This document shows, in pieces, positions 1,487 to 27,118 of a stretch of 64,000 nt of DNA. The stretch's first letter is position 1; each line of letters begins with the position of its first letter. The DNA comes from Burkholderiales bacterium (GTDB lineage Bacteria > Pseudomonadota > Gammaproteobacteria > Burkholderiales > Burkholderiaceae_C). The notes under the pieces are model-generated. The model ran no database searches, was not told the DNA's origin, and worked only from the letters and a program-made list of their open reading frames with translations. A program made the position numbers and the translations under genes. The stretch spans positions 30,983-94,982 of the forward strand of contig CANJJE010000011.1 of the NCBI GenBank assembly GCA_947474755.1, given 5' to 3'.

Positions 1487-2692
1487 TCAGGCCGCCAGCG
1501 GCGGACGGGCTCGCCGCGCATGTGCCGCCAGCGCGGCAATGACCTGCGCGATGTCGTCATCGCTTTGTGCAGCGCTCAAACTGATGCGCACCAGGCTCAG
1601 ACCTGACGGCGTGGCCGGCGGAATCATCAGGTTGGTGTAGATGCCCGCATCCAGCAGGCTTTGCCACAGCGCCAGCGCATCGTCGCGAGAGTCGAAGACG
1701 ATCGCTGCAACCGGGCCGGGGGTCGTCGTGCCAAGCCGGTAGCCCAGCTTGTTCAACTCGCCGTAAACGCGCTCCGCGTGGCGCCACAGCCGAGCACGCA
1801 GATCGTGGCCCTGCAGCACTTTACGCAGCGCCTGATGCGTTGCGGCAATCACGGGCGGTGGCGGCGAGGCGGTGAAGATGTAGGGTCGGCTGACCATGCG
1901 CATGAATTCGACCTCTGCATGTCGGCCGAGGCAGAACCCACCAACGCCGCCGAGGCTCTTCGAGAAGGTGCCGACGATGAAGTCAACCTCGCCGAGCAGA
2001 TCCTGTGCTTCGCAAAGGCCCAGGCCGCGGGGACCGAACGCGCCGAAGGAATGGGCCTCGTCGACCAGCAGCCAGGCTCCGTGGCGCTTCTTGATCTCGA
2101 CGATCTCGCGCAGCGGCGCCCGGTCGCCCAGCGTGCTGTACAGGCTTTCGACGACGATCAACGTGCGGCTGGCGGCCTCACCCAAGCGCTCCAGACGTCG
2201 CTCAAGATTTTCAGCGTCGTTGTGGCGAAAGCGGATCGTCGTCGCATGGCTGAGCCTGCAACCATCGTGGATGCTGGCATGGCTGTCCGCGTCGACAAGC
2301 AGCGTGTCGCCTTCGCCAGCCAGTGCCGACAGCGTGCCGAGGTTCGCCTGATAGCCGGTCGAAAAGACGATGGCCGTCGGCCAGCCGAAAGCACTCGCGA
2401 GGGAGTGCTCCAGCGCCCTGTGGCCGGCATAGTTACCGCTGGCCATCCGCGAGCCCGTGGTGCCGGTGCCCAGAGACTCGATTGCCGATATCGCTGCAGC
2501 ACGACAGTCTGCGTCGTAAGTCAGGCCGAGGTAATTGTTGGTGCCAGCGAGAATTACACGGCGGCCATTGATCGTGGCAGAGGTGGCCGAATGCACGTCA
2601 TCCATCGGGGTGGCGATCGGGGCCACCCGGCTGTTTTCGGCCAAGCTGGCCGCGAGGCCGCGCTGAACGGCAAATTTATCGAGAAGACTCAC
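1487..2692 (-). CDS. PLP-dependent alpha-oxoamine synthase, serine palmitoyltransferase-like
   Basis: Motifs NNYLGL, STGYQANLG, LVDEAHSFG and GTFSKSLGGVGGF (PLP lysine) are present. The start is chosen at GTG 2692, which overlaps the ACP stop (GTGA). The longest ORF extends to 2728. Confidence 0.85.
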   Translation of the reverse strand: MSLLDKFAVQRGLAASLAENSRVAPIATPMDDVHSATSATINGRRVILAGTNNYLGLTYDADCRAAAISAIESLGTGTTGSRMASGNYAGHRALEHSLASAFGWPTAIVFSTGYQANLGTLSALAGEGDTLLVDADSHASIHDGCRLSHATTIRFRHNDAENLERRLERLGEAASRTLIVVESLYSTLGDRAPLREIVEIKKRHGAWLLVDEAHSFGAFGPRGLGLCEAQDLLGEVDFIVGTFSKSLGGVGGFCLGRHAEVEFMRMVSRPYIFTASPPPPVIAATHQALRKVLQGHDLRARLWRHAERVYGELNKLGYRLGTTTPGPVAAIVFDSRDDALALWQSLLDAGIYTNLMIPPATPSGLSLVRISLSAAQSDDDIAQVIAALAAHARRARPPLAA

Positions 2693-2982
2693 GGTGCGCC
2701 GCGCTTCAACTGGACGATGCCAGCACACAGTTCATCGATGGTTCGAGCCTGAGCCATCGTCTCCACGGGAATCGACAGGTCGAGCCGGTCTTCGATCTCC
2801 ATCACGAGGTCCATGACCTCGGCTGAATCCAGATCAGCCTCCTGAGCCAGATCGGCGTCTCCCCGGATCCCCGCCGAATCGGGGCGTATCACCCCCAACG
2901 CCTCCCGGATGGTCGACTCGACCGAGGCTACGGTTTCAGTCAAGGACGTGGACCCCACTGCAGTGCTGGACAAAGGATTCAC
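2689..2982 (-). CDS. acyl carrier protein (dedicated, cluster-associated)
   Basis: 97 aa and acidic, with a DLDSAEVMDLVMEIEDRL phosphopantetheine-attachment-type motif. ATGA overlaps the upstream FAAL stop and GTGA overlaps the downstream AOS start. Confidence 0.85.
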   Translation of the reverse strand: MNPLSSTAVGSTSLTETVASVESTIREALGVIRPDSAGIRGDADLAQEADLDSAEVMDLVMEIEDRLDLSIPVETMAQARTIDELCAGIVQLKRGAP

Positions 2983-4859
2983 GATGCTGCGTTCTCGACT
3001 TCAACAGGTGCACGCTTGGCATGGCCGACGAACCTGCCACGGCACTCCGTGGAACCCTCGGCACTTCGGCGCTCCAAGAACTCCTTGCGAGCGGTGCTGC
3101 GTGACAGCTTGCCCGACGATGTCCGGGGCAGGGTATGCGGCGGAACGAGTTCTATCAGGCAATGGATGCCAAACTCGACATGGATGGCCTGCTGGACCCG
3201 TTCGGCCAAGCTGGCCAGTTTGCGGGGATCGGCTTCTCGACATTGCACGACCAAAACTGCCAACTCACCTTCGTCGGGATCGGTGATCGAGAACGCCGAG
3301 GCATCGGTTGGCCGTACTTCAGGCTGCTGCTCGGCCAGGTGTTCCAGGTCCTGTGGCCAGATGTTTCGTCCCTTGATGATCATCAGATCCTTGGCGCGAC
3401 CGGTAATGTGCAGCGAGCCCTTGGCCTGATAGCCGATGTCGCCCGTGTCCAGCCAGCCGTCAGCCGACAGCACCTCGCGAGACGCGACTGGATTGCCGAA
3501 GTAGCCAGACATCAGGCTTGCGCCGCGCAGATGGATGCGGCCGCAACGACGCTCCGGCAAAGGTCGGCCACGTTCATCCCGGATTTCCATCTCGTAGCCT
3601 GGGAGTGGTTGGCCGCAATTGATGAAGGCCTTGCCTTTCGATGGTGTTCCTTCGGCCGAGACTGGAATGGCTTCGCCGTAATGCGCCAGTCGGTCGACAT
3701 CGACGATATCGCTGCCTGCGCCACCTTCAAGGGGCGCGAAGCTGACCGCCAATGAGCACTCGGCCATTCCGTAGCACGGCAGAAACGCCTTTTCATTGAA
3801 ACCCGCCGACGCCAGCACCCTCGCGAACTCGTGCAAGGTTTCAGGGTGAATCATCTCGGCACCGACGCCGGCCACTCGCCAGGCCGACAAATCGAGCGAC
3901 TCGGTGTCTGCCGAGCGCAGGCGTCGTGCGCACAGCGTGTAGCCAAAGGGCGGACTGAAAGACACCGTGCAACGGTTCAGCGACATCAGCTTGAGCCACA
4001 GACGAGGACGCATCGCGAAATCGCGTGTCGGCAGGTAATCGACCGAGCGCTGGGTAGCGACGCAGCCCAGCACGATACCGACCAGGCCCATGTCGTGATA
4101 GTAGGGGAGCCAGGAGCAGAAACGATCCTCGGGCGTCAACCGAAAGCCGTGGTTGAAGATGGCTTTCAGATTGGCCATCACAGCAGACTGCGTGATCATC
4201 GTGCCGCGAGGAAAGCGGGTGCTACCCGAGGTGTACTGCAGGTAGGCCAGCTCACCGGGCTCGGGCGGCCGCGGTACCGTGTCCAGAGCGGGCAGCACCG
4301 AGAAATCCTGCGCAGTGCCGACCAGCGTCAGCGACAGACCCTCGCTAGCCTCGCGCAGGAAGCCGACAAACTCTGGTGGCGCGAACGCGGCCACTGCCTG
4401 ACAGTCACGAACCAATTGACGCAGATGGCGGATGTAGGCCTCTCGCCCGCCCAGGTGCACCGCAGCAGGCAAAGGTACGGGTACCAGCCCGGCGTACTGA
4501 CAGGCGTAAAACATCACTGCAAAGTCGGGATGGGTGTGGGCAACAAGGGCCAGCCTCTCACCACGTCCCAGCGGGGCGAGGCGACGCGACATTTCGAGAG
4601 CGCGCGCGCGCAGTTCCCGGTAGGGAAGCGTGGAGACCAGCGCTCCACGGCCGTCGTAGTAGTTGAAGCCGGAATCGCCACCAGCAGCGTAATCAAGCGC
4701 CGCAGCAAGTGTCGGAAAGTCCGCACTACGCAGAGCAATGCCGCTCGCGGTCGGGGTCAAACTGGCGTGAAAAGGTGCAGCAGGATTCACTGGAAACACC
4801 TCTGACGGCCATGCCGGCCTCGCAAGTAATCTTTCAACCCTCACCCTTTCGTACTGCAA
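2979..4859 (-). CDS. fatty acyl-AMP ligase / acyl-ACP synthetase (adenylate-forming enzyme)
   Basis: Motifs YLQYTSGSTRFPRG, WLPYYHDMGL, GWLDTGDIGY and TSSGKLSR are present, with a FAAL-like N-terminus. The longest ORF starts at TTG 4859, there is no upstream ATG, and the exact start is uncertain. Confidence 0.85.
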   Translation of the reverse strand: MQYERVRVERLLARPAWPSEVFPVNPAAPFHASLTPTASGIALRSADFPTLAAALDYAAGGDSGFNYYDGRGALVSTLPYRELRARALEMSRRLAPLGRGERLALVAHTHPDFAVMFYACQYAGLVPVPLPAAVHLGGREAYIRHLRQLVRDCQAVAAFAPPEFVGFLREASEGLSLTLVGTAQDFSVLPALDTVPRPPEPGELAYLQYTSGSTRFPRGTMITQSAVMANLKAIFNHGFRLTPEDRFCSWLPYYHDMGLVGIVLGCVATQRSVDYLPTRDFAMRPRLWLKLMSLNRCTVSFSPPFGYTLCARRLRSADTESLDLSAWRVAGVGAEMIHPETLHEFARVLASAGFNEKAFLPCYGMAECSLAVSFAPLEGGAGSDIVDVDRLAHYGEAIPVSAEGTPSKGKAFINCGQPLPGYEMEIRDERGRPLPERRCGRIHLRGASLMSGYFGNPVASREVLSADGWLDTGDIGYQAKGSLHITGRAKDLMIIKGRNIWPQDLEHLAEQQPEVRPTDASAFSITDPDEGELAVLVVQCREADPRKLASLAERVQQAIHVEFGIHCLIELVPPHTLPRTSSGKLSRSTARKEFLERRSAEGSTECRGRFVGHAKRAPVEVENAAS

Positions 4860-4923
4860 GCCTTTGGCCGCCGGGAAATGTAATTTGAGCGCGCCCGGGA
4901 TGCAATCAAACTGTCATGGTTGC

Positions 4924-4937
4924 CACAACATGTTGTG
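4924..4937. promoter_or_regulatory. perfect 14-bp palindrome CACAACATGTTGTG upstream of the FAAL-ACP-AOS operon (possible operator)
   Basis: Read directly in the 150-bp intergenic gap, about 65-75 nt upstream of the longest start of the 2979..4859 gene. No regulator or promoter boxes could be assigned. Confidence 0.25.
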
Positions 4938-4939
4938 AA

Positions 4940-4967
4940 AACCGCCAACGACGAACATTTGGCGGTT
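4940..4967 (-). terminator. possible rho-independent terminator after the FAAL-ACP fusion gene
   Basis: A 9-bp perfect stem (AACCGCCAA / TTGGCGGTT) with a 10-nt loop. On the minus strand the stem runs into TTTT. It lies 44 nt downstream of the stop at 5011. Confidence 0.4.
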
Positions 4968-5010
4968 GACTCACGCACGCTACTGACTATTTTGACCGAT
5001 TGCCATCGCT

Positions 5011-6966
5011 TCACGCTGTAGTGGTATCCAGAAACTCCGCAAGTTGCTCCAGCGTTGGGTAGTCGAACAAGTCGGTGACTTGGACACGCTGCGGAAACTC
5101 TAGCTCTATCGCTTCGTGGATCCGAGCCAAAGTGAGCGAGTTGAGGTCAATTTCCAGCAAGTTGGTCTGAGGTGTCAGTTCTCGGCCGACGATGAAGCCC
5201 GCGCAGATTTGCTGCAATCGTTGCTCCGTCGAGGTTCCCGTGCGTTGCTCGGCAACATTTCTTTGCGCAAGGAGCCGCTCAATTTCGGCCAGAGGTGCGT
5301 CGAATTCGCCCAGTTCGAACGCCTTGGCGAGCGCATAACGCTGTAATTTGCCGCTGCTGGTCTTCGGGATTTGCCGCACGGGCACCACATGTGCAACCTC
5401 CAGGCCGGTTTGCTGCAGCATCCTGCGCCGCAGTTCGATCACCTTGGGCAGGAACTCGGCGACCCCCGCCCTGTGAATCACGAAGAAGGCCAACTCCTCG
5501 GTATCAGCCACCGGGCCGCGCACGCCTGCTGCGGCGACGCGGTTGGCTTCAATATCGACGACCTCCGCCGCGATCCGTTCCAGATCGTGAGGGTAGTGGT
5601 TCTGCCCGTTGATGATGACCAGATCCTTCTCTCGCCCGGCTATGACCAACTGGCCTTCCAAGATGAAGCCCAGGTCGCCAGTCGCCAACCAGCCGTCGGC
5701 CGAGATGATCTCTGCGCTTCGCGCTGGATCTCGGAAATAGCCTGCGGTGACGTTGTCGCCGCGGATCAGCAAGTGACCCAGCATGCGCTCACCAAGTGTT
5801 TGCCCGGTCTCATCGACGATACGCAACTCGACCCCGCTCAACGGCAATCCGAGCTTGACCAGTTCGGATACCCGGCCGCCATTTTGTGCTTCGTGGCGCA
5901 CTGGCTCGCCGACGCGCAGCCGGGTTGGGTCGACGACGACGGTTTCGAGGGGGGTGCCGCGCATTGCGAAGCTGACAGCCAGGCTCGCTTCGGCAAGACC
6001 GTAGACGGCAAACATGGCGCTTGGCTTCAGGCCGTGGGGTGCCATCGTGCGCATGAAACGGCGGCAGACTTCCGCCGAGATCGGCTCCGCCCCGTTGAAG
6101 ATCAGTCGCACCGATGACAGGTCCAGGCCCTGCGGTGGTCGATGTGCGTACTGGCGAAGGTAGTGCTGGAAGCCGAAGTTCGGCGAACACAGCACGGTAC
6201 AGCGCCGCTGGCTGGCCAGATCCAGCCACAACAGCGGGCGCCGTGCGAACAGCTCGGTGCGCATGATCGCGTGGTTGATGCCGCTGGCCAGCTGGGTCAG
6301 GTGAAAGCCGATCAGCCCCATGTCGTGTGACAACGGCATCCAGCTCAGCACCGAGTCCTGGTCGGTGAAGGCGGCGCCTTTGATGATCGAGGCGATGTTC
6401 GCCGTGAGGTTGCGGTGCGTGAGCATCACGCCCTTCGGGTCGCCCGTCGAGCCCGATGAATACTGGATGAACGCGAGGTCCCTCGGATCAGGGTTCACCG
6501 GCACGCCTGGCTCGCCGGTGATGTCCAAGGCTCCCACGATCATCGTGCGCGCGCGAAGCTGCTGCCCTTCGTTGTCCAGGCGGTGTGTTGCGATGAAGTC
6601 GTCGAGGCGGTCCAGCGTCGGGGCGTCGATGCAGACCCGTGATTCATCGAGTTGTGCAAACACCCGCAGCAGCTTGCGCCAGTGTTCGTCTGCGACACCT
6701 GGTGCCAGCGGCACCGCCACGATGCCGCCGAGCACGCACGCCCAGAACATCTCCACGAAGCGTTCGTTGTCAGCAATGAACAGGATCAGCGTATCGCCAC
6801 GTTTGAGGCCATGGCGTTGCAGCGCGCCCAGCGCGCCAATGGCGCGCTGGCGCAGTCGCCGGAAACTCATCGTGCGCTGCTCGTTCTCGCCCTCGATGAA
6901 GGTGATCTGTCGATCCTCGCGCACGTCGGCCGGCAAGATCGCGTTGAGTGTCTCGAAGGGCAGCAT
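5011..6966 (-). CDS. fatty acyl-AMP ligase fused to a C-terminal carrier-protein (ACP/PCP) domain
   Basis: Motifs FIQYSSGSTGDPKG, WMPLSHDMGL, GWLATGDLG and TSSGKLQR are present. The C-terminal ~80 aa contain IDLNSLTLARIHEAIELEF (carrier Ser motif). The start is taken at the internal ATG 6966 (MLPFETLN), 11 nt after the P450 stop. The upstream extension to 7140 overlaps the P450 gene. Confidence 0.85.
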   Translation of the reverse strand: MLPFETLNAILPADVREDRQITFIEGENEQRTMSFRRLRQRAIGALGALQRHGLKRGDTLILFIADNERFVEMFWACVLGGIVAVPLAPGVADEHWRKLLRVFAQLDESRVCIDAPTLDRLDDFIATHRLDNEGQQLRARTMIVGALDITGEPGVPVNPDPRDLAFIQYSSGSTGDPKGVMLTHRNLTANIASIIKGAAFTDQDSVLSWMPLSHDMGLIGFHLTQLASGINHAIMRTELFARRPLLWLDLASQRRCTVLCSPNFGFQHYLRQYAHRPPQGLDLSSVRLIFNGAEPISAEVCRRFMRTMAPHGLKPSAMFAVYGLAEASLAVSFAMRGTPLETVVVDPTRLRVGEPVRHEAQNGGRVSELVKLGLPLSGVELRIVDETGQTLGERMLGHLLIRGDNVTAGYFRDPARSAEIISADGWLATGDLGFILEGQLVIAGREKDLVIINGQNHYPHDLERIAAEVVDIEANRVAAAGVRGPVADTEELAFFVIHRAGVAEFLPKVIELRRRMLQQTGLEVAHVVPVRQIPKTSSGKLQRYALAKAFELGEFDAPLAEIERLLAQRNVAEQRTGTSTEQRLQQICAGFIVGRELTPQTNLLEIDLNSLTLARIHEAIELEFPQRVQVTDLFDYPTLEQLAEFLDTTTA

Positions 6967-6977
6967 GGGAGTTGTTT

Positions 6978-8282
6978 TCAGCGCGCCACAAGACGCATGT
7001 GGAGGTCGTGACGAGAGCGCAGGTTGACCTGGAATTCTGCCGCGGGCGGAACTGTGCCGTTGTATTGCAACCGGAAGCGATCGGCCACCATGGCGAGGTG
7101 CATCGTCATCTCTGCCATCGCGAAGGTGGCGCCGATGCAATACCTCGGCCCGGCAGAAAACGGCAGGTAGGCGAAGCGATGACGGGCATCGACCGCAGCG
7201 GGTTCGAAGCGCAGCGGATCGAAGGCCTCGGGCTGGTCCCAGTGCGCGGTCTGTCGGTGAAGCATGTAAGGGCAGATGAAGACATCAGTGCCCGCCGGCA
7301 CATGAAAGCCACCCAGTACATCGTCACCGAGGGCGCGGCGGGTGAACAGCCACCCTGGCGGGTACAACCGCAAGGCTTCTTGCAGCACCTGCTCGACGTA
7401 AGGCGGCGTGGCTGAAGGTTCCTCCGCAAGCCCTGAGGCCGGTGCGGGTTCGGCGATGGCCTTGTGCAGCCTGGCTTCGACCTGCGGGTTCTGCGACAGC
7501 AGGTACCAGGTCCAGTTGAGCGCGCTGGCGGTGGTCTCGTGGCCAGCCACGATCAGCGTCATCAGTTCGTCCAGCAGGGCCCGATCGGGCATCGCTTCGC
7601 CAGTGTCACGGTCGCGCACCTCCATCAGCGTCGACAGCAGGTCCATCTCGATGCGCTGCTCCTGGCGCCGGGCCGCAATCATGTTCAGCACGTGGTGGGT
7701 CAGCGCTCGGAATTTCGCTGCGAAGGGCAGGTCGCGCCGTGTCTCGCTGGTCAGCAGATCGAACGGGTTGGAGCCTTTGGCGTCGATCAGGCGGTCGAGG
7801 TCGGTGCCAAACAAGGCGCGCAGCACGATGTTCAGCGCCAGCTCGCTCAGGTCGTGCGTCAGATTCACAGTTTCGCCGCGTGCGGCATGGCCGCTCCAGC
7901 GGTCGATCAGGTCGGCGTTGGCCTGGTGCATCAGCGCCGAGAAACCGCGGATCACCTGGCTGTGGAAGGCCGGCTGCACCAGGCGCCGCTGCCGCGACCA
8001 CAGCTCGCCCTCGCTGGCCATCAGCCCATTTCCAAGCAGCACGCGCACGCGCTCAATGCCAACGCCCTTGATGTAGTTGCCCCGGTTTGTCTGCAACACG
8101 CGACGGATGTCGTCCGCGTTCAGAATCACCAGGCTGTCGTTGCTGCGACTTTGCGAGGCGAGGCGAAAGGTGTCGCCATAGCGCTGCGACAGATCGAACA
8201 GCAGGCTTGCGCTTTCGTCGTTGGCGTCAAGGTCGTGGCGCTGTGGTGGGCCTGGGGCCAGCACTTCCTGAACCATAATCAT
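6978..8282 (-). CDS. cytochrome P450
   Basis: Heme-binding motif FSAGPRYCIGATFA, I-helix AGHETTA and EALRLYPP (ExxR region) are present. The start is taken at ATG 8282 (MIMVQEVL), giving 434 aa. The ORF-track extension to 8600 is Arg/Gln-rich and unsupported. Confidence 0.9.
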   Translation of the reverse strand: MIMVQEVLAPGPPQRHDLDANDESASLLFDLSQRYGDTFRLASQSRSNDSLVILNADDIRRVLQTNRGNYIKGVGIERVRVLLGNGLMASEGELWSRQRRLVQPAFHSQVIRGFSALMHQANADLIDRWSGHAARGETVNLTHDLSELALNIVLRALFGTDLDRLIDAKGSNPFDLLTSETRRDLPFAAKFRALTHHVLNMIAARRQEQRIEMDLLSTLMEVRDRDTGEAMPDRALLDELMTLIVAGHETTASALNWTWYLLSQNPQVEARLHKAIAEPAPASGLAEEPSATPPYVEQVLQEALRLYPPGWLFTRRALGDDVLGGFHVPAGTDVFICPYMLHRQTAHWDQPEAFDPLRFEPAAVDARHRFAYLPFSAGPRYCIGATFAMAEMTMHLAMVADRFRLQYNGTVPPAAEFQVNLRSRHDLHMRLVAR

Positions 8283-8309
8283 TTTCTGTTTCGAGCCGCA
8301 AATTGTGTC

Positions 8310-9014
8310 ATGCGCACGACAAGTGCCCCTGCGATGACCGTGTCGGTGCTGATCACCTCTGAGTTCGTGTTGTGGCCCGCGCTCGAATCGCAGTGGCTGG
8401 CGAGCCTGCCGTCGCCGCGGCGCCTGCAGATTGGCGCTTGGCCCGACGCGCAAGCGCGCCATCGCTCCCTGGTCGGCAGCCGCCTTCTGGTTCATGGGCT
8501 GCGGCGACTGGGGTACGGGGACGACGCACTGGCCACGCTGCGCTATCCAACGAATTCCCGACCGACGCTGGCATTGCCGGTCAGCTTCAGCCTGTCCCAT
8601 TGCGATGGACGCATCGTCTGTGCGCTGTCAACGCAGGGTGCGGTCGGCATCGATGTCGAGGCGCTGGGGGGTCTGGTCGCTGGAGACTTCCATCTGTACC
8701 TCAGTGCCGCCGAACGCGCTTGGGCCGGGCGCAGCACACGCCGTTTCTATTCGGTGTGGACCCGAAAGGAGGCCGTGGCCAAGGCGGCCAGCCAGAGGGG
8801 TCTGCGCGATGTGGCTCGGGTCGACACGACACACGGTGAGAACCTCGCTGCCTTTGCCGGAAGCCTGTGGCATACCGCCAGCGTGCCCGTTGGCCGGCGC
8901 CACGTGGCCCATCTGGCGCTGGCCGAGGCGCCTCGCCAACTGAGCTTTCATCGACTGGCCAGGTCGGTGTTGGAGCGCGACATGGCGGTCACGGAATCCG
9001 AGGCGGTACGGTAA
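8310..9014 (+). CDS. 4'-phosphopantetheinyl transferase (Sfp type)
   Basis: Motifs FSLSHCDGRIVCALS, GIDVE and FYSVWTRKEAVAKA are present. It is divergent from the P450 gene. ATG 8310 or 8334 is the likely start, and the 516-aa track ORF is an artefactual extension. Confidence 0.8.
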   Translation: MRTTSAPAMTVSVLITSEFVLWPALESQWLASLPSPRRLQIGAWPDAQARHRSLVGSRLLVHGLRRLGYGDDALATLRYPTNSRPTLALPVSFSLSHCDGRIVCALSTQGAVGIDVEALGGLVAGDFHLYLSAAERAWAGRSTRRFYSVWTRKEAVAKAASQRGLRDVARVDTTHGENLAAFAGSLWHTASVPVGRRHVAHLALAEAPRQLSFHRLARSVLERDMAVTESEAVR

Positions 9015-9830: not shown

Positions 9831-10607
9831 TCAACGGTTGGCCAGTTCGCGTGCCAACTCCAGGTCTGCGGGCTTGTCCACATCGACGGCGGCTCGCCCA
9901 TCTCGCATCGTGACGATCGCGAGCCGCGCGCCGCCAGCGAGTGCACCCAGCCGTGCGGTCGCAGCAGACAGCGTCAGTCGGCCCAAGCGGTAGCGCAGAG
10001 CAAACAGCCAGCCCAGGCGCCGCATCATCCGAAGCGGCTCCTTGCGATGGCGCTCCAGTTCGCGCCAGAGTTCAACCACCCCTGCGGCCGCGGGTCGCGC
10101 CATCAGGAACAGATTGCATCCGGAGTAGTCGCCATCGGCAAAGCGCAGCCAGGTGCGCCGCGTGTGAGGCGCTGCGGCCTCCACAGCAGCGCGTCCGGCC
10201 AGCGCGGCGGTGACATCGGCGTCAGCCGGGCAGGCGGCTAGAAATTCTGTGAGCCAGGCTGTCTCCAGCAGGGCATGGTCGGCGGTCGTCACCAGCAGCG
10301 GGGCGCCCAGGTCGGCAAGCGCCGCTGCCACGGTAGCGCTGGGGCCTGAGGCGGTGGCCATCGTCGACAGCGGCTTGCCGAGCAACTCGGGCTGCAGTTC
10401 GGGCAGATCACGCAGCAACTCCGGCCGCTCGATCGCAACGACGATGCGTGTGACCTCCGGCACTGCGGCAAGTGCTGCCACCACGCGTTCGATCATCGTG
10501 CGGCCGCCCACCTCGATGAGCGCCTTGTGGCTGACGCCCGCATGCGCTGCCAGCGGATCGCCGCTGGTGCGGGTGCCAGCCAGCACCAACGCTGTCAGCG
10601 GCTTCAC
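9831..10607 (-). CDS. MobA-like nucleotidyltransferase family protein
   Basis: N-terminal ALVLAGTRTSGDPLA...KALIEVGGRTMIERV. The GTG start overlaps the stop of the upstream gene (GTGA). It is tail-to-tail with the 9053..9829 gene, with a 1-nt gap. Confidence 0.65.
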   Translation of the reverse strand: MKPLTALVLAGTRTSGDPLAAHAGVSHKALIEVGGRTMIERVVAALAAVPEVTRIVVAIERPELLRDLPELQPELLGKPLSTMATASGPSATVAAALADLGAPLLVTTADHALLETAWLTEFLAACPADADVTAALAGRAAVEAAAPHTRRTWLRFADGDYSGCNLFLMARPAAAGVVELWRELERHRKEPLRMMRRLGWLFALRYRLGRLTLSAATARLGALAGGARLAIVTMRDGRAAVDVDKPADLELARELANR

Positions 10608-11734
10608 GGCGCGAGCAATTTCTCGTAGACGCGGTAGGTCTTATAGGGCTTGGCGCCGAGCGATTCGATGACGTGCCGCATCGGACGATTGTCCTCGAGG
10701 ATCCACGACAGCTCGACCTGGCGCACGCCCTTGGCCCGCAAGCCCTTGCGCAGCGAGTCGATGACCAGGAACGGCGCCAGCCCGCCGGCCATGCTGCCGC
10801 TGAAACTGCGCCGGATGCCCATCAGCGGCACCCGAGCGGTGCGCGCACCACCCTTCAGCCGCCACAGCAGCTTCAGCCAGTTGAAGGGCAGCAGCCGACC
10901 GTTGAAATCGGCGATCAACTCGTTCAGGTTGGGCAGTGCGATGCCGAAGCCAACCGCCTCGCCATTCATTTCGACGATCGCCACGCAGGTCGGGTCGATC
11001 AGCATCTTCATGCTCTTGGCCATATGCGCAATCTCGGCCTTCGTGAAGGCGATGAAGCCCCAGTTCTGCGACCAGGCGTCATTGAAGATCGCGGTGACGG
11101 TGTCGAACTCTTCCAGGTAGCGAGACTTGTCGAGGTGGCGCACCGTCAGCGCCTGCGCCGTGCGGCTGTCGATCTTGCGGCGTGCAGCGCGCGGCAACTC
11201 GTGATCCATGTCGTACATGTAGGCGATCAGGTCCTTCGCCTTCCCATAGCCAAGGGCCTCGATGCGCGCCGCGGCGTAGCTCGGGTCATGGCCCATCAGC
11301 ATCACCGGTGGGGTGTCGAAGCCATCGACGAGCAATCCGGTCTCCTCGTTGATCGACAGGTTGAATGGCCCCAGGATGTGACGTTTGCCGCGCGTGCGCA
11401 GCCAGGCTTCAGCGGCGCTGAACAACGCGGCGAACACCTCGCCATCGTCCTCGGCGGCGATCATTCCGAAGTGCCCGACGTCGGGGTCCGCCACCAATCG
11501 GTCGATCTGAGCACTGATTCGCCCAACATCGCGGCCATCCCGGCGTGCCAGCCATAGCTGCGTCTCGGCATGCTGGAAATACGGGTTCTTGGCAGGCGAC
11601 AGGGCCTCGCGACGTTCCAATACCAGCGGTGGAACAAAGACCGGGTCGTTGACGTACAAGCGCGAGGGCAACGTGATGAAGCGGTCCAGTTCCGTCGGTG
11701 TTCCAACAGGGACGATCTCGATGCGACTGCTCAT
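10604..11734 (-). CDS. GNAT-like acyltransferase family protein (candidate lipid N-acyltransferase)
   Basis: 376 aa from the internal ATG 11734, which overlaps the upstream stop (ATGA). The N-terminus reads IEIVPVGTPTELDRFITLPSRLYVNDPVFVPPLVLERREALSPAKNPYF and continues through RDVGRISAQID. I recognise this only as a GNAT-related family often mis-annotated, so the function is inferred from context. Confidence 0.55.
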   Translation of the reverse strand: MSSRIEIVPVGTPTELDRFITLPSRLYVNDPVFVPPLVLERREALSPAKNPYFQHAETQLWLARRDGRDVGRISAQIDRLVADPDVGHFGMIAAEDDGEVFAALFSAAEAWLRTRGKRHILGPFNLSINEETGLLVDGFDTPPVMLMGHDPSYAAARIEALGYGKAKDLIAYMYDMDHELPRAARRKIDSRTAQALTVRHLDKSRYLEEFDTVTAIFNDAWSQNWGFIAFTKAEIAHMAKSMKMLIDPTCVAIVEMNGEAVGFGIALPNLNELIADFNGRLLPFNWLKLLWRLKGGARTARVPLMGIRRSFSGSMAGGLAPFLVIDSLRKGLRAKGVRQVELSWILEDNRPMRHVIESLGAKPYKTYRVYEKLLAP

Positions 11735-12945
11735 GCGATGGGCTTGGCTTGTACGGGGGCGAGGAAGCCCAGCCACAGCGTGCGGACGCTGTGCCAGACA
11801 AAGGTCAGTCCCTGCCATGCAGTAATGATGTACAGACCGGCGGAACCTTCGCCCACAAGCACGCTGAGCGCCATGATGGACATGGTGATGTTGCGCCGCG
11901 CGATGAAGCTACGCACCCACGCATCGAGTCGCGTTGCTGCATGCAGGGCGAAGCCAAGGCGATATTTGGCTATGCCAAGAACAATCCGGTCAGCTACATA
12001 AAACAGGGTCAGACAGATAGCAGCTTGATATATCGGGTCGCTTGTCGTCTGTGCGCCCAAACCCCAGGCGAACGCAAAGTACCAGAAGGGTGGGTGCACG
12101 ATGTCGGTGCCGTGATCCAGTGCATTGCCGATCTTCGAATCGGTCAAGGTCAATCGCGCCAGCTTGCCGTCGACGCTGTCGAGCACGCTCATGGCGTAGG
12201 CACAAAGGAAGCCGTACAGAAAGTGGCTGGTCATGAACAGCGGCACCACGGCAATGGCCAGCAGGATCGACACGATCGTCACCGTGTTGGGATGGATGCG
12301 CAGCCACACGCACAGGCGCACGAGCTGCCAGACGAGTGGCGGGTAGACATGGCGGGTCAACAAATCAGTTGAACCCTTGTAGTTGTCCCAGAACATCTGA
12401 CGCTGCAGGCGCTGGCGCGCATCGGCGTCGTGCACCGCGTAAATCCAATAGGGCAACGTGCGCCGCAGCTTGTTGATGTAAGCGGGGAACTTGGCTTCGT
12501 CGAGTGGCGCGATGCGCTCTGCTGCGACCAGGGCATCAGCTACTTCGCAGAGGCTTGCTGCCCCGGCAGGGATGGCGTCCCGCAATTCGGGCTGCAACAA
12601 AAGCACCACCGCTCGCTCATGCCCTTCTCCGCGCGTTGCCAGGCACGAGGACATGTCATCGGTGGTCAACAGGAAGTCGATCAGTCGAGGGTCGATCACA
12701 TTGGCGCCGTCGAGTGCGACGAGAGGCCCGTTGAGCAAAGCCTGGCGCAGGCGGCTGCCGAGCGCTGCGGTCGTGGTCTCGATCTGTGCGCCTGGCCAGG
12801 TCTTCGATGACGCGTCAGGCCCGGACAGCACGATGCGGGTGCCGTCCGCCACGCTGCCAACGCTGCGCCTCAATCGCTCGATCGGTGGGACGCCGAAAAG
12901 CGTTTCGGCCTGAGCCGTCGAGTGAGTATCGATCCAGAGATTCAT
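11731..12945 (-). CDS. CDP-alcohol phosphatidyltransferase family protein with ~190-aa N-terminal cytoplasmic extension
   Basis: Perfect family signature DSVDGKLAR-x8-G-x3-D-x3-D (DSVDGKLARLTLTDSKIGNALDHGTDIVH). The ATG at 12945 overlaps the LptG-like stop (ATGA). It is a paralogue of 16784..17896. Confidence 0.85.
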   Translation of the reverse strand: MNLWIDTHSTAQAETLFGVPPIERLRRSVGSVADGTRIVLSGPDASSKTWPGAQIETTTAALGSRLRQALLNGPLVALDGANVIDPRLIDFLLTTDDMSSCLATRGEGHERAVVLLLQPELRDAIPAGAASLCEVADALVAAERIAPLDEAKFPAYINKLRRTLPYWIYAVHDADARQRLQRQMFWDNYKGSTDLLTRHVYPPLVWQLVRLCVWLRIHPNTVTIVSILLAIAVVPLFMTSHFLYGFLCAYAMSVLDSVDGKLARLTLTDSKIGNALDHGTDIVHPPFWYFAFAWGLGAQTTSDPIYQAAICLTLFYVADRIVLGIAKYRLGFALHAATRLDAWVRSFIARRNITMSIMALSVLVGEGSAGLYIITAWQGLTFVWHSVRTLWLGFLAPVQAKPIA

Positions 12946-14006
12946 GGGCGCTCGCACGCCCGCAGGCGCCACAGTCCGATTGAGATGAACAACAAAGGGG
13001 CCGCCAGCGCTGTGACCGGTGGCGGAAGCTGGCCACTCGACCCCAGCGAGGCGACGACGCCATCAAACAGCAAGAAGCCCAGACCCAGCGCCAAGGAGAT
13101 CAACATCGTGCTGCCGCCGGCATCACCGCGGGTGAGCGTGGCGGCTGTCGGCAGGGCCAGCAGCAGCATGATGAACACCACGAGCGGCGCCGCGAACGAT
13201 CGGTACAAGGCGGTTTGGTAGTAGCTCAGGGGTTGTGATCCCACGCGCGAACCCACGATCACATCGGCGAGCATGATAGTGGAGAGGTAAGGACGGGCCA
13301 CGCCAAGGCGCAGCACCTCCTCCGGATGGAGGTTGGTCTGCCAAACCAGTGTGTCGTCATGAATCCGCCGGACACCAGACGGCTCGACGAGCAGTTCTGT
13401 CACGTCCTGCAATTGCCAGGCCTGACCATCCCACCGCGCGCTGGCCGCTCGCACGCGTGAGGTCAGCAGCCCCGCCTCGCTGGCGTAGACGCGTATGCCC
13501 TTCAACTGCAGCCCGTCCGGGCTGATGCTGTCGATCGACACCAGTCCACCACGTGTGTTCGCCCACAGCGGCTTCTTGACCTCTTCGGCGGGTGCGCTCG
13601 CGTTCCACCACTGCTTCAAGGCGATCTCGGCGCGCGGCAGGACCAGTTGCACCAGAGCCACCTGGAAGAGGGTGAAGACCAGCAACACGGGCAGCAGATA
13701 AGCCAGCATGCGCGTGAAGCTGACCCCGCAGGCGCGCATGGCCGAGATCTCGATCGTGCGCGCCATCGCATTCAGCGAAGTCATTGTTCCCAGCAGTACA
13801 GCCAGGGGCAACGCGAGCCCCAGCTCTGCCGGCAAGCGCAGCATGGCGTAATAGAGCAGGCCGCCGAAGCCTTGGCCGCGTTCGAAGATGTCGGTGGTGA
13901 CGTCGAGCAGTTCGAGCAACTGCATCATGGCCGTCAACACCGCCAGCATGGCCAGGATCTGCGTGCCGACACGGCGGCACAGGTACGCCTGCATCGTGCC
14001 GATCAT
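12942..14006 (-). CDS. LptF/LptG-family (YjgP/YjgQ) permease, LptG-like
   Basis: 354 aa. The N-terminus (YLCRRVGTQILAMLAVLTAMMQLLELLD) and MRACGVSFTRML are typical of the LPS export permease family, with six predicted hydrophobic segments. Confidence 0.8.
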   Translation of the reverse strand: MIGTMQAYLCRRVGTQILAMLAVLTAMMQLLELLDVTTDIFERGQGFGGLLYYAMLRLPAELGLALPLAVLLGTMTSLNAMARTIEISAMRACGVSFTRMLAYLLPVLLVFTLFQVALVQLVLPRAEIALKQWWNASAPAEEVKKPLWANTRGGLVSIDSISPDGLQLKGIRVYASEAGLLTSRVRAASARWDGQAWQLQDVTELLVEPSGVRRIHDDTLVWQTNLHPEEVLRLGVARPYLSTIMLADVIVGSRVGSQPLSYYQTALYRSFAAPLVVFIMLLLALPTAATLTRGDAGGSTMLISLALGLGFLLFDGVVASLGSSGQLPPPVTALAAPLLFISIGLWRLRACERP

Positions 14007-14046
14007 CGGCAGTCCCTGGCCGCGCGGGCGCGCGATAGCTGCGTGT

Positions 14047-15252
14047 TCATGGGCTGCGCGGTGCGCGGCGGCGCGCCCGGGTTCGGGTGCGGTCGATCAG
14101 CGCTTCGATCGCCATCACCGCGCGCAGCACCGGGTTGTCTCCTGGCCACGCCAGGCTGCTCCGGAATATCCAGACACTCAGCACGGCGAAGACGACGAAC
14201 GGCGTCCACACCGCTGCAGCAGGTGGAAGACGGCCTGATTGACCGAGACTGGCGCCCAGCTGGATCGCGTGATCGAGGCTCAGCAAGGCCACCGTGGCGA
14301 ACACCACGCCAGGCGTGCGGCGTCCCCGTTTGGATGCCATGCCCAGCGGCAATGCCAACAGGGGCAGGAACGGGAAGATGCACGCCCGCGCCAGCCGATT
14401 GTGAAACTCCGCAGCAGGCTTGGTCTGGTAGCCGTTCTGGTGCATGGTGTGCCAAAGCTCGGCCAGAGTCAGTTCGCGTACCGATCCGCCCCGCTCGGCG
14501 AGCGGCTCAGCCTTGGGCGAGAAGTCCCGGTCGGTCGCGCCCTGCACGAAACGAGACAGCGAGACGGCCGCACCGTCCTCCTTCGTGCCTTCGCTCACCC
14601 GCAGGACCAGCCCGTCTTCGAAACGCATCCGCAGCCCATCTGGCGTCGGGACCAGTCTGCCGCGAGCGGCTGTCAGCACGTCTTCGCTGTGGGCGCCACG
14701 TCGCTCCATGAACACGCCGCGCAGGCTCCTGCCATCAGGTTCGATCACCTCGGCGGTGAAGGTGACCCCGTGCCCGATGTCGACGAACCGGTTTTCTTCG
14801 ACACGCGAATCCCAGCCTGTCTGCAGCACCCGATTCACTACCACGTTGTAGCCGTAGCGTGCCATCGGCTGCAACTGGCCGTAGAGATACAGGCTGAACA
14901 TCGCCAGCAAAACGGCGAGGACGAAATAGGGTGCAGTGATGCGGGCGATCGATCGGCCGGTGACCAGCATCACATCGAGCTCGTTGTCATCGCACATGCG
15001 AGCGGCGGCCATGAAGATCGCGGCCGTGAAAGCCATGGGCAAGGCCAGACCCAGGTAGTGCGGAACCAGCGTTGCCGCCATCACTAGCACGATCGATGGC
15101 GGGGCACCGGCGGAGGCTGCCAGGTCAAACAATCGCAGCAGCCGTTCGAGGAGCTGTGCAAGAAGCAGCGCCAGTAGCGCCAGCGCCAGCGGACCGGCGA
15201 TCAGGCGCAGCGCGTAGCGGTCGAGTCGGTCGAAAGCAAACCAGGGACGCAA
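14047..15252 (-). CDS. LptF/LptG-family permease, LptF-like
   Basis: Contains FDRLDRYALRLIAGPLALALLALLLAQLLERLLRLFD and VMLVTGRSIARI. The start is uncertain: TTG 15252 lies 5 nt after the HIT stop, and the longer ORF to 15339 overlaps the HIT gene. Confidence 0.75.
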   Translation of the reverse strand: MRPWFAFDRLDRYALRLIAGPLALALLALLLAQLLERLLRLFDLAASAGAPPSIVLVMAATLVPHYLGLALPMAFTAAIFMAAARMCDDNELDVMLVTGRSIARITAPYFVLAVLLAMFSLYLYGQLQPMARYGYNVVVNRVLQTGWDSRVEENRFVDIGHGVTFTAEVIEPDGRSLRGVFMERRGAHSEDVLTAARGRLVPTPDGLRMRFEDGLVLRVSEGTKEDGAAVSLSRFVQGATDRDFSPKAEPLAERGGSVRELTLAELWHTMHQNGYQTKPAAEFHNRLARACIFPFLPLLALPLGMASKRGRRTPGVVFATVALLSLDHAIQLGASLGQSGRLPPAAAVWTPFVVFAVLSVWIFRSSLAWPGDNPVLRAVMAIEALIDRTRTRARRRAPRSP

Positions 15253-15256
15253 AGTC

Positions 15257-15715
15257 TCAGCCCGTTTGCCGCACCCAGGCGTCTCGCAACTGCGCCAGCA
15301 GCGCGTCGCTCGTGGCGGTATCGGGTGCCACCGCGGCATCGAGCATCGGTGGGCCGGGCCAGCCAGCGTCCGGGAAATCGGTGTTGCCGAAGCGGCGCGA
15401 GCCTTCGTAGCGCGGGATCACGTGAAAGTGCACGTCCGGGTCGACCATCATCAGCATCAGGTAGTTGATCCGCTCGTATCGCACGACATCGCGCAGCGTG
15501 CCCTCGATGCAGCGCACCACATCACGCATCTCGGCGTAGGCCTGAGGACTCACATCGGCAAACGCGCGCACAGGCTCGCGACAGATCAGCACCAGCGAGC
15601 CCAGCGCGGGCTGCTTCGGGCGCAGCAGGACGGTCCAGCGATCAGTCTGAGCGACTCGTGAGGCCGGGTCACCGAACTTGATCTCGGTGGCCGTCTTGGG
15701 TGCAGCATCAGCCAT
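15257..15715 (-). CDS. HIT (histidine triad) family protein
   Basis: Histidine triad DVHFHVIPRY. ATG at 15715. Confidence 0.8.
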   Translation of the reverse strand: MADAAPKTATEIKFGDPASRVAQTDRWTVLLRPKQPALGSLVLICREPVRAFADVSPQAYAEMRDVVRCIEGTLRDVVRYERINYLMLMMVDPDVHFHVIPRYEGSRRFGNTDFPDAGWPGPPMLDAAVAPDTATSDALLAQLRDAWVRQTG

Positions 15716-26125: not shown

Positions 26126-27118
26126 TCACAACCATGAGCGGGCCCGGTACCAGGCCACTGCGTCGGCAAAGCCCGTGTCGAGGTCGAACTGTGGCGCCCA
26201 ATCCGGTGCTGTGGCCAGCTCGCCGACAGATACCGACCAGTCTTCATGCCGCAGCTCGCGCAGTTTCTGTGAATTGAGCATGTTCGCCAGACCCAAGCTG
26301 CGGCCCGCGTCACCGACCAGCGCCACTGCCCGCAGCAGCGCCTGCGGTGCGTGTACCAACCGCGCACGTTCGTTGCCGACTGCCCGCGCCGCGGCACCCA
26401 GAACTTCGTGCCAGTGGTAGCCCTCAGGCCGTGCATCGGCAGCGGTCAGCACCTGCCCACGCGGTTGCAGGGTGGCCAGTCGCTCGATCAGGCGTACCAG
26501 ATCGTCGACATGGATCATCGCGGCGCGTGCGCTTGGCGATCCGAGCAGAGGCACCAGGCGTTGCCGGGCGAGTTGAAAGAACACCAGCGTTTCGCGGTCA
26601 CCCGGGCCGTACACCGCTGGCGGTCTCAGCACCGTGACGCGTTCGCCGAGCATCGCGCGCACCACATCCTCGCCTGCGCGCTTGCTTGCGGCGTAATCGG
26701 AGAGCTGCGGCTCGCGAGCGGCGAGGCTTGAGACATGCAGGAAGCGCGTGGCAGGGGCCACGCGCTGCACGGCCTCAGCAAGCGCCCGCGTGCCATCGCG
26801 GTTGCTCTTGAAGAATTCGGTTCGATCCGCAGCCTTGATGAGGCCTGCGACATGAATCACCACCCCTGCGCCATCGACCAGTCGCTCCAGGGCGGACGTA
26901 TTGGCCAGCGAGCCTGCCACCACCTGCGCTCCGTGGCCGCGCCACTCGCTGATGCTGGGCTCACTGCGCAACAGCAGCCGCACCGACCAACCCCGGCCGA
27001 TCAACATCCGTACCAGATGCTGACCGATGAAACCGCTGGCCCCGGTCACGGCGGCCAGCGGAGCAGTCTCACCCGTCTTCGTGATCAACATCGGCTGTAG
27101 GGGCTGCGAGGCAGTCAT
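26126..27118 (-). CDS. NAD(P)-dependent SDR-family epimerase/dehydratase/reductase
   Basis: Rossmann motif VTGASGFIGQHLV and a YAASK catalytic motif. Confidence 0.85.
   Translation of the reverse strand: MTASQPLQPMLITKTGETAPLAAVTGASGFIGQHLVRMLIGRGWSVRLLLRSEPSISEWRGHGAQVVAGSLANTSALERLVDGAGVVIHVAGLIKAADRTEFFKSNRDGTRALAEAVQRVAPATRFLHVSSLAAREPQLSDYAASKRAGEDVVRAMLGERVTVLRPPAVYGPGDRETLVFFQLARQRLVPLLGSPSARAAMIHVDDLVRLIERLATLQPRGQVLTAADARPEGYHWHEVLGAAARAVGNERARLVHAPQALLRAVALVGDAGRSLGLANMLNSQKLRELRHEDWSVSVGELATAPDWAPQFDLDTGFADAVAWYRARSWL

Follow-up and report, generated by a model that had tools for sequence, protein, structure and literature searches.

In alpha-, beta- and gammaproteobacteria the gene for serine palmitoyltransferase (SPT), spt, co-occurs with acpR, an acyl carrier protein (ACP) gene directly upstream of it, and with the ligase gene aasR nearby (Padilla-Gomez et al. 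2022, PMC9386255). AasR acylates AcpR and not coenzyme A (CoA) or AcpP, and acyl-AcpR is strongly favoured over acyl-CoA by all three SPTs tested, from Caulobacter, E. coli BL21(DE3) and S. wittichii (PMC9386255). The loci described from Caulobacter, E. coli and Nitrosomonas carry a further gene, for a reductase (cerR, also called epi), between aasR and acpR (PMC9386255). Here we describe a locus of this kind in a stretch of 64,000 nucleotides, referred to as the window, from an uncultured Burkholderiales bacterium (assembly GCA_947474755.1, contig CANJJE010000011.1, positions 30,983 to 94,982). Three adjoining genes on its minus strand, at 1487 to 4859, very probably constitute the aasR-acpR-spt starter module of proteobacterial sphingolipid synthesis. 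The system is known and already described, and the window locus is an ordinary further example of it. The only variation is that it belongs to a clade of loci that lack cerR between aasR and acpR, most of which carry an accessory block upstream.

In this module AasR would adenylate a free long-chain fatty acid and load the acyl chain onto the phosphopantetheine arm of AcpR, not onto CoA. Spt, a pyridoxal phosphate (PLP)-dependent alpha-oxoamine synthase, would then condense acyl-AcpR with L-serine to 3-oxo-sphinganine, with loss of CO2. Homologues of CerR and of the bacterial ceramide synthase (bCerS) that are encoded elsewhere in the window could convert 3-oxo-sphinganine to dihydroceramide, and the surrounding head-group and LptF/G-like genes might serve to decorate and export it. 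Substrates, product and carrier dependence are predicted by homology to the tested orthologues.

The gene triad and its products

The three genes lie head to tail. The first, aasR, predicted to encode a fatty acyl-AMP ligase (FAAL) acting as acyl-AcpR synthetase, spans 2979 to 4859 and gives 626 residues in its longest open reading frame (ORF) form. It is followed by acpR (2689 to 2982), for a putative dedicated ACP of 97 residues, and by spt (1487 to 2692), for a putative SPT of 401 residues that starts from a GTG overlapping the stop codon of the carrier gene. The initial annotation had proposed these three minus-strand ORFs with overlaps of 4 nt, and they can be read directly in the sequence. 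It gave the letters of the acpR/spt junction correctly as GTGA (2689 to 2692). At the aasR/acpR junction (2979 to 2982) it gave ATGA, where the coding strand also reads GTGA, a slip of one letter. Of 20 related loci of the clade without cerR, 19 keep the carrier-synthase overlap, as RTGA, and the ligase-carrier overlap is found, as GTGA or ATGA, in all five loci at the level of the genus. Since they are conserved across related loci, the overlaps are not accidents of a single sequence. They would allow the three proteins to be made together off one transcript.

The 5' end of aasR is most likely not the TTG at 4859, which merely opens the longest ORF and which we rejected in favour of the GTG at 4790 (603 residues). 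A GAGG Shine-Dalgarno site lies 8 nt upstream of this GTG, in one relative the region upstream of this point contains a stop codon, and conservation of the ligase among relatives starts near residue 35; these three observations together led us to prefer GTG 4790. A consensus scan called no terminator either after spt or before aasR. We also considered a compositional island signature and discarded it, as the GC content of the triad is 0.631 compared to 0.650 for the genome, at the 19th percentile of windows of equal size.

The synthase passes the NCBIfam model for the betaproteobacterial SPT equivalog (NF047599, SerpalmtaseBetaP) with 572 bits at a cut-off of 500. Its top solved relatives are bacterial SPTs, the first being that of Sphingomonas wittichii (2X8U, 8.2e-122, residues 17-393), which has the same residues at the positions aligned with H138, D211, H214, K245 and R369. 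The motifs that had been pointed out in this protein are present, with GTFSKSLGG at residues 241-249 (1946-1972), containing the PLP lysine K245, and NNYLGL at residues 52-57 (2522-2539). In contrast, it stays below the cut-off of the 5-aminolevulinate synthase model (205 bits vs 339). In a maximum likelihood tree rooted on the BioF of the same genome it falls into a well-supported SPT clade, a placement that had been suggested as a check. These data support the assignment of the synthase, as far as its sequence tells, as an SPT of the proteobacterial type.

The ligase contains an AMP-binding core (Pfam PF00501, 1.2e-53) and passes the FAAL model NF006624/PRK09192 with 768 bits at a cut-off of 600, in line with the AMP-ligase core and FAAL-like N-terminus first noted for it. 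Its best structural match is PDB 3PBK, the E. coli FAAL (EcFAAL), with an E-value of 1.4e-169. With the corresponding ligase of the E. coli sphingolipid locus the window protein shares 49% identity. That ligase in turn matches 3PBK over its full length with 1278 bits, which makes the EcFAAL crystal structure effectively the structure of an AasR orthologue. EcFAAL loads a partner ACP and rejects CoA (PMC8460268). Its canonical CoA pocket is blocked by W224, M231 and F279 together with a FAAL-specific helix, T252-R258 (Patil et al., PMC8460268). In the window ligase the blocking residues are conserved as W250, M257 and F305, and TRDFAMR, residues 278-284, corresponds to the helix. Furthermore, the FAAL-specific insertion region aligns with that of EcFAAL and differs in length by just 2 residues. 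The comparison covers these features and leaves aside the alternative-pocket residues T83 and P107 of EcFAAL, because the E. coli protein used is offset by one residue from the published numbering in its N-terminal part. With pocket blockers, helix and insertion all present, the ligase is predicted to be a FAAL rather than an acyl-CoA synthetase.

The carrier matches the Pfam PP-binding family (5.1e-10) and has the expected DSAEV-type attachment site, with the phosphopantetheine serine in DLDSAEV at residues 50-56 (2815-2835). Against the AcpP equivalog TIGR00517 it reaches about 25 bits, far from the cut-off of 70, and the true AcpP of the genome is encoded on another contig (C3). Its alignment with the ACP encoded in the E. 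coli locus scores 44.7 bits, that with AcpP of its own genome 24.6 bits. Judged by these scores, the carrier is distinct from the housekeeping AcpP and closer to the E. coli protein. Two phosphopantetheinyl transferases (PPTases) are encoded in the genome, one of the AcpS type on C3 and one of the Sfp type in the window, at 8310-9014.

Companion genes and comparison with described loci

A distant DNA search found a match in 4073 of 5426 E. coli genomes. The match lies in a locus with the order yghO, fatty acyl-AMP ligase, NAD-dependent epimerase, acyl carrier protein, spt, lptG and lptF, whose gene order is that of the published yghO-aasR-epi-acpR-spt cluster of BL21(DE3) (ECD_02850-02854). 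All five ceramide proteins of the E. coli locus find homologues in the window, each of them single-copy in the 3.06-Mb genome, with identities of 49% for the ligase, 44% over the core of the ACP, 50% for Spt, 46% for YghO and 37% for the epimerase-family protein. The homologue of YghO, also known as aca or bCerS, is encoded at 10604-11818 on the minus strand. The alignment with its E. coli counterpart spans 372 residues (E 2.5e-106), and no family matched this product in Pfam or NCBIfam. The CerR/epi homologue, an NAD-dependent epimerase/dehydratase-family reductase, lies at 26126-27118 on the minus strand (E 2e-47 to the E. coli epimerase-family gene) and has NCBIfam hits of the short-chain dehydrogenase/reductase type. 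It is thus 23 kb away from spt and outside the aasR-acpR interval.

LptF/LptG-like genes adjoin the lipid genes in both species. In E. coli, lptG and lptF follow directly after spt (locus L004, NZ_CP033762.1, 2764526-2772307), and the window has an LptF/LptG-like pair at 12942-15339, near its lipid genes. Between the two pairs tblastn gave no mutual match at E 1e-3, as they are too diverged. The E. coli locus differs from that of the window in its order, aasR-epi-acpR-spt, and in having no upstream cytochrome P450, FAAL-carrier fusion or Sfp-type PPTase.

In Caulobacter crescentus the same three proteins, AasR (CC_1165), AcpR (CC_1163) and Spt (CC_1162), act in sequence, with a FAAL-type ligase that loads a private ACP and acyl-ACP passing to the SPT (PMC9386255). 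There, too, acpR is directly upstream of spt, and homologues of cerR/epi and aca/bCerS are found in the neighbourhood. However, cerR (CC_1164) sits between aasR and acpR, whereas the genes of the window triad abut. This comparison covers gene content and gene order. The cut-offs of NF047599 and NF006624 were also passed in two control genomes, from sets including Caulobacter vibrioides. A contiguous aasR-acpR-spt arrangement with epi elsewhere is known from Gluconobacter oxydans, as judged from consecutive locus tags (GOX2058-GOX2057-GOX2056, with epi at GOX1849; PMC9386255). This organism is an alphaproteobacterium for which no accessory P450 and FAAL-carrier block has been reported, and the likeness is one of locus tags. 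Nitrosomonas eutropha (Neut_0458-0461) is the published betaproteobacterial example, of the same class and with the same gene set, but there epi (Neut_0459) lies within the locus, in the canonical order. The SPT of S. wittichii (ACP Swit_3899), which favours acyl-AcpR, is the best solved match of the window enzyme and identical to it in the PLP lysine and the catalytic His and Asp. On the other hand, in Sphingomonadaceae aasR is far from acpR-spt, and the Arg before the PPATP loop is Ile in the window Spt. A literature search on sphingolipids in Variovorax or Burkholderiales found nothing relevant.

Taken at the level of sequence, the triad has every feature by which the AasR-AcpR-Spt system is recognised. 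The proposal that it is an acyl-ACP-dependent module for a sphingoid base, comparable to Caulobacter Spt, has thereby held up, as it has an SPT equivalog, a FAAL with its own ACP, counterparts of all three proteins in E. coli, and bCerS and CerR homologues in the window.

Alternative substrates of the synthase

Three points weigh against reading the triad as a starter module for sphingolipids. The organism is an uncultured metagenome-assembled genome (MAG), for which we infer amino-acid substrate, chain length and carrier preference all by analogy. Its cerR is outside the operon, unlike in Caulobacter, E. coli and Nitrosomonas. Finally, the residue before the PPATP loop (residues 357-364, 1601-1624) is Ile357 in the window Spt, Leu in E. 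coli Spt and Arg in the S. wittichii enzyme. In Sphingomonas SPT, as described for S. paucimobilis, this Arg contacts the serine carboxylate. With Ile357, one serine-binding contact of Sphingomonas SPT may therefore differ in this clade.

This residue also bears on the question whether the module makes a long-chain amino-ketone from an amino acid other than serine. Such a product could be a 1-deoxy base derived from Ala or Gly, a CAI-1-like signal or the starter of a natural product, and the upstream block would then mark a specialised-metabolite cluster. Indeed, the Sfp-type PPTase, the P450 and the second FAAL, fused to a carrier, are typical of secondary-metabolite clusters, and they are found directly upstream and syntenic in most of the clade. 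Nevertheless, the synthase passes the SPT equivalog model and remains far below the cut-off of the CqsA-type model (211 bits vs 428), and bCerS and CerR homologues share the window. Head-group genes would be expected to act on a C1 hydroxyl, which serine alone provides. The E. coli orthologue likewise has no Arg before PPATP, and the E. coli BL21 Spt, reported active, uses serine (PMC9386255). We consider a non-serine product very unlikely.

We give an equally small chance to the idea that Spt uses acyl-CoA in vivo, like the SPTs of eukaryotes and Bacteroidota, while AasR and AcpR feed another acceptor such as the N-acyltransferase or the island's LpxL-like acyltransferase. Carrier use is unreadable from sequence, and rhodobacterial SPTs do form a little product in vitro when given palmitoyl-CoA (PMC9386255). 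However, the stop/start overlap ties acpR to spt in nearly all loci of the clade, and all three SPTs tested much preferred acyl-AcpR, including the S. wittichii enzyme that is the best solved match (PMC9386255).

That the synthase is instead BioF (pimeloyl-thioester and alanine) or Kbl (acetyl-CoA and glycine), with which it shares the alpha-oxoamine synthase fold, common motifs and sub-threshold matches to both models, has next to no probability and we rejected it, as the initial annotation had done, because of the model scores (bioF TIGR00858, 326 bits vs 426; Kbl NF005394, 272 vs 460, and TIGR01822, 237 vs 493) and because contig C2 carries another gene, which clears the BioF model with 442 bits; moreover, structures of BioF and Kbl match at only about 1e-58, their E-values trailing those of the SPTs by over 60 orders of magnitude.

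Distribution of the locus and its upstream block

To place the aasR-acpR-spt module among its relatives, we scanned species-representative genomes, which gave 580 relatives, and mapped the window proteins onto 80 fetched loci. The closest relatives are found in Burkholderiales MAGs (83-98% identity), a Rhizobacter MAG (86%), and Curvibacter soli and Variovorax (77-78%), followed by the gammaproteobacterial Panacagrimonas and Steroidobacteraceae (68-75%). All loci with an Spt at least 68% identical to that of the window have the order aasR-acpR-spt without cerR, and synteny of the triad extends to 20 related loci. Nearly all loci with an Spt at most 65% identical have the canonical order aasR-cerR-acpR-spt.

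In the BioF-rooted tree the loci without cerR group together in a single clade (21 rows, SH-aLRT 99), with canonical loci of the Wenzhouxiangella type as sisters. The clade stands apart from other Burkholderiales loci (Ferrigenium, Burkholderiaceae MAGs), with the window enzyme next to those of Nevskiaceae and Steroidobacteraceae. The tree comes from a quick search without a mixture model, which lowers confidence in its deep branches, and it does not include N. eutropha. Loss of cerR from the operon maps, with good support, to a single SPT clade that mixes Burkholderiales with gammaproteobacterial Nevskiaceae and Steroidobacteraceae. Such a mixed clade suggests an inter-class transfer of the locus. 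Within its genus spt occurs in 21 of 24 species, while it was found in 3 of the 166 genera sampled from the family (completeness at least 90%) and in none of 16 other families sampled from the order. The patchy occurrence together with the mixed-class clade fits a lateral transfer of the whole lipid island.

The accessory block (5011-9014) was assigned from Pfam and NCBIfam domain hits and contains a FAAL fused to a carrier domain (5011-6966, minus strand), a cytochrome P450 (6978-8282, minus strand) and the Sfp-type PPTase (8310-9014, plus strand). Among the 80 mapped loci it recurs only in the SPT clade without cerR. There, the FAAL-carrier fusion lies directly upstream of aasR in most of the Burkholderiales and Panacagrimonas loci (L019-L024, L026-L031), usually accompanied by the P450 and the divergent PPTase. 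The block is missing in five loci of the clade, four from Steroidobacteraceae (L033-L036) and one from a gammaproteobacterial MAG (L025), in which the contig breaks off some 300 nt upstream of aasR. We detected the PPTase in 9 of the 11 fetched loci that have the fusion and sequence upstream of it, and in no locus without the fusion. Since the PPTase tracks the fusion in this way, its partner is more likely the fused carrier than AcpR. In Caulobacter and E. coli, AcpR is phosphopantetheinylated without such an Sfp-type enzyme (PMC9386255). We also asked whether the fusion could be a fused duplicate of AasR and AcpR. The ligase halves are 36-37% identical, and the fused carrier gives no BLASTP alignment with AcpR. 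Because the carrier domain cannot be aligned, a simple duplication followed by fusion is unsupported, and we dropped this explanation.

Block and aasR are separated by a spacer of 151 nt (4860-5010, minus strand), the only sizeable gap between them. It contains a hairpin at 4940-4967 with a 9-bp stem and a short T tract and, next to it, a perfect 14-bp palindrome, CACAACATGTTGTG, at 4924-4937. The fold of the spacer reaches -50 kcal/mol with a z-score of -1.98. A consensus scan of the hairpin called no terminator and no promoter on this strand. The spacer may be a transcript boundary or an operator.

On the other side of the triad, a MoxR-type AAA ATPase gene (324-1310) and a DUF58 gene (2-652) follow spt on the same strand after a gap of 176 nt. 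MoxR is kept beside spt solely in the two closest relatives (L017, L022) and is therefore probably unrelated to the lipid genes.

At their cut-offs, NCBI models would already name the synthase an SPT and the ligase a fatty acyl-AMP ligase. What the locus adds is one more uncultured Burkholderiales lineage among the likely producers of sphingolipids, with a starter module that is kept across the genus yet rare in the family. The clade-specific accessory block is the sole lead worth following and the sole part with some potential for novelty. It is conceivable, if rather improbable, that the block forms a second carrier-protein-dependent acyl line, which might for example provide bCerS, or the LpxL-like acyltransferase of the island, with an N- or O-acyl chain hydroxylated by the P450. 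If this were true, both chains of the sphingolipid would be built from protein-tethered fatty acids, a route that is undescribed for bacterial ceramides.

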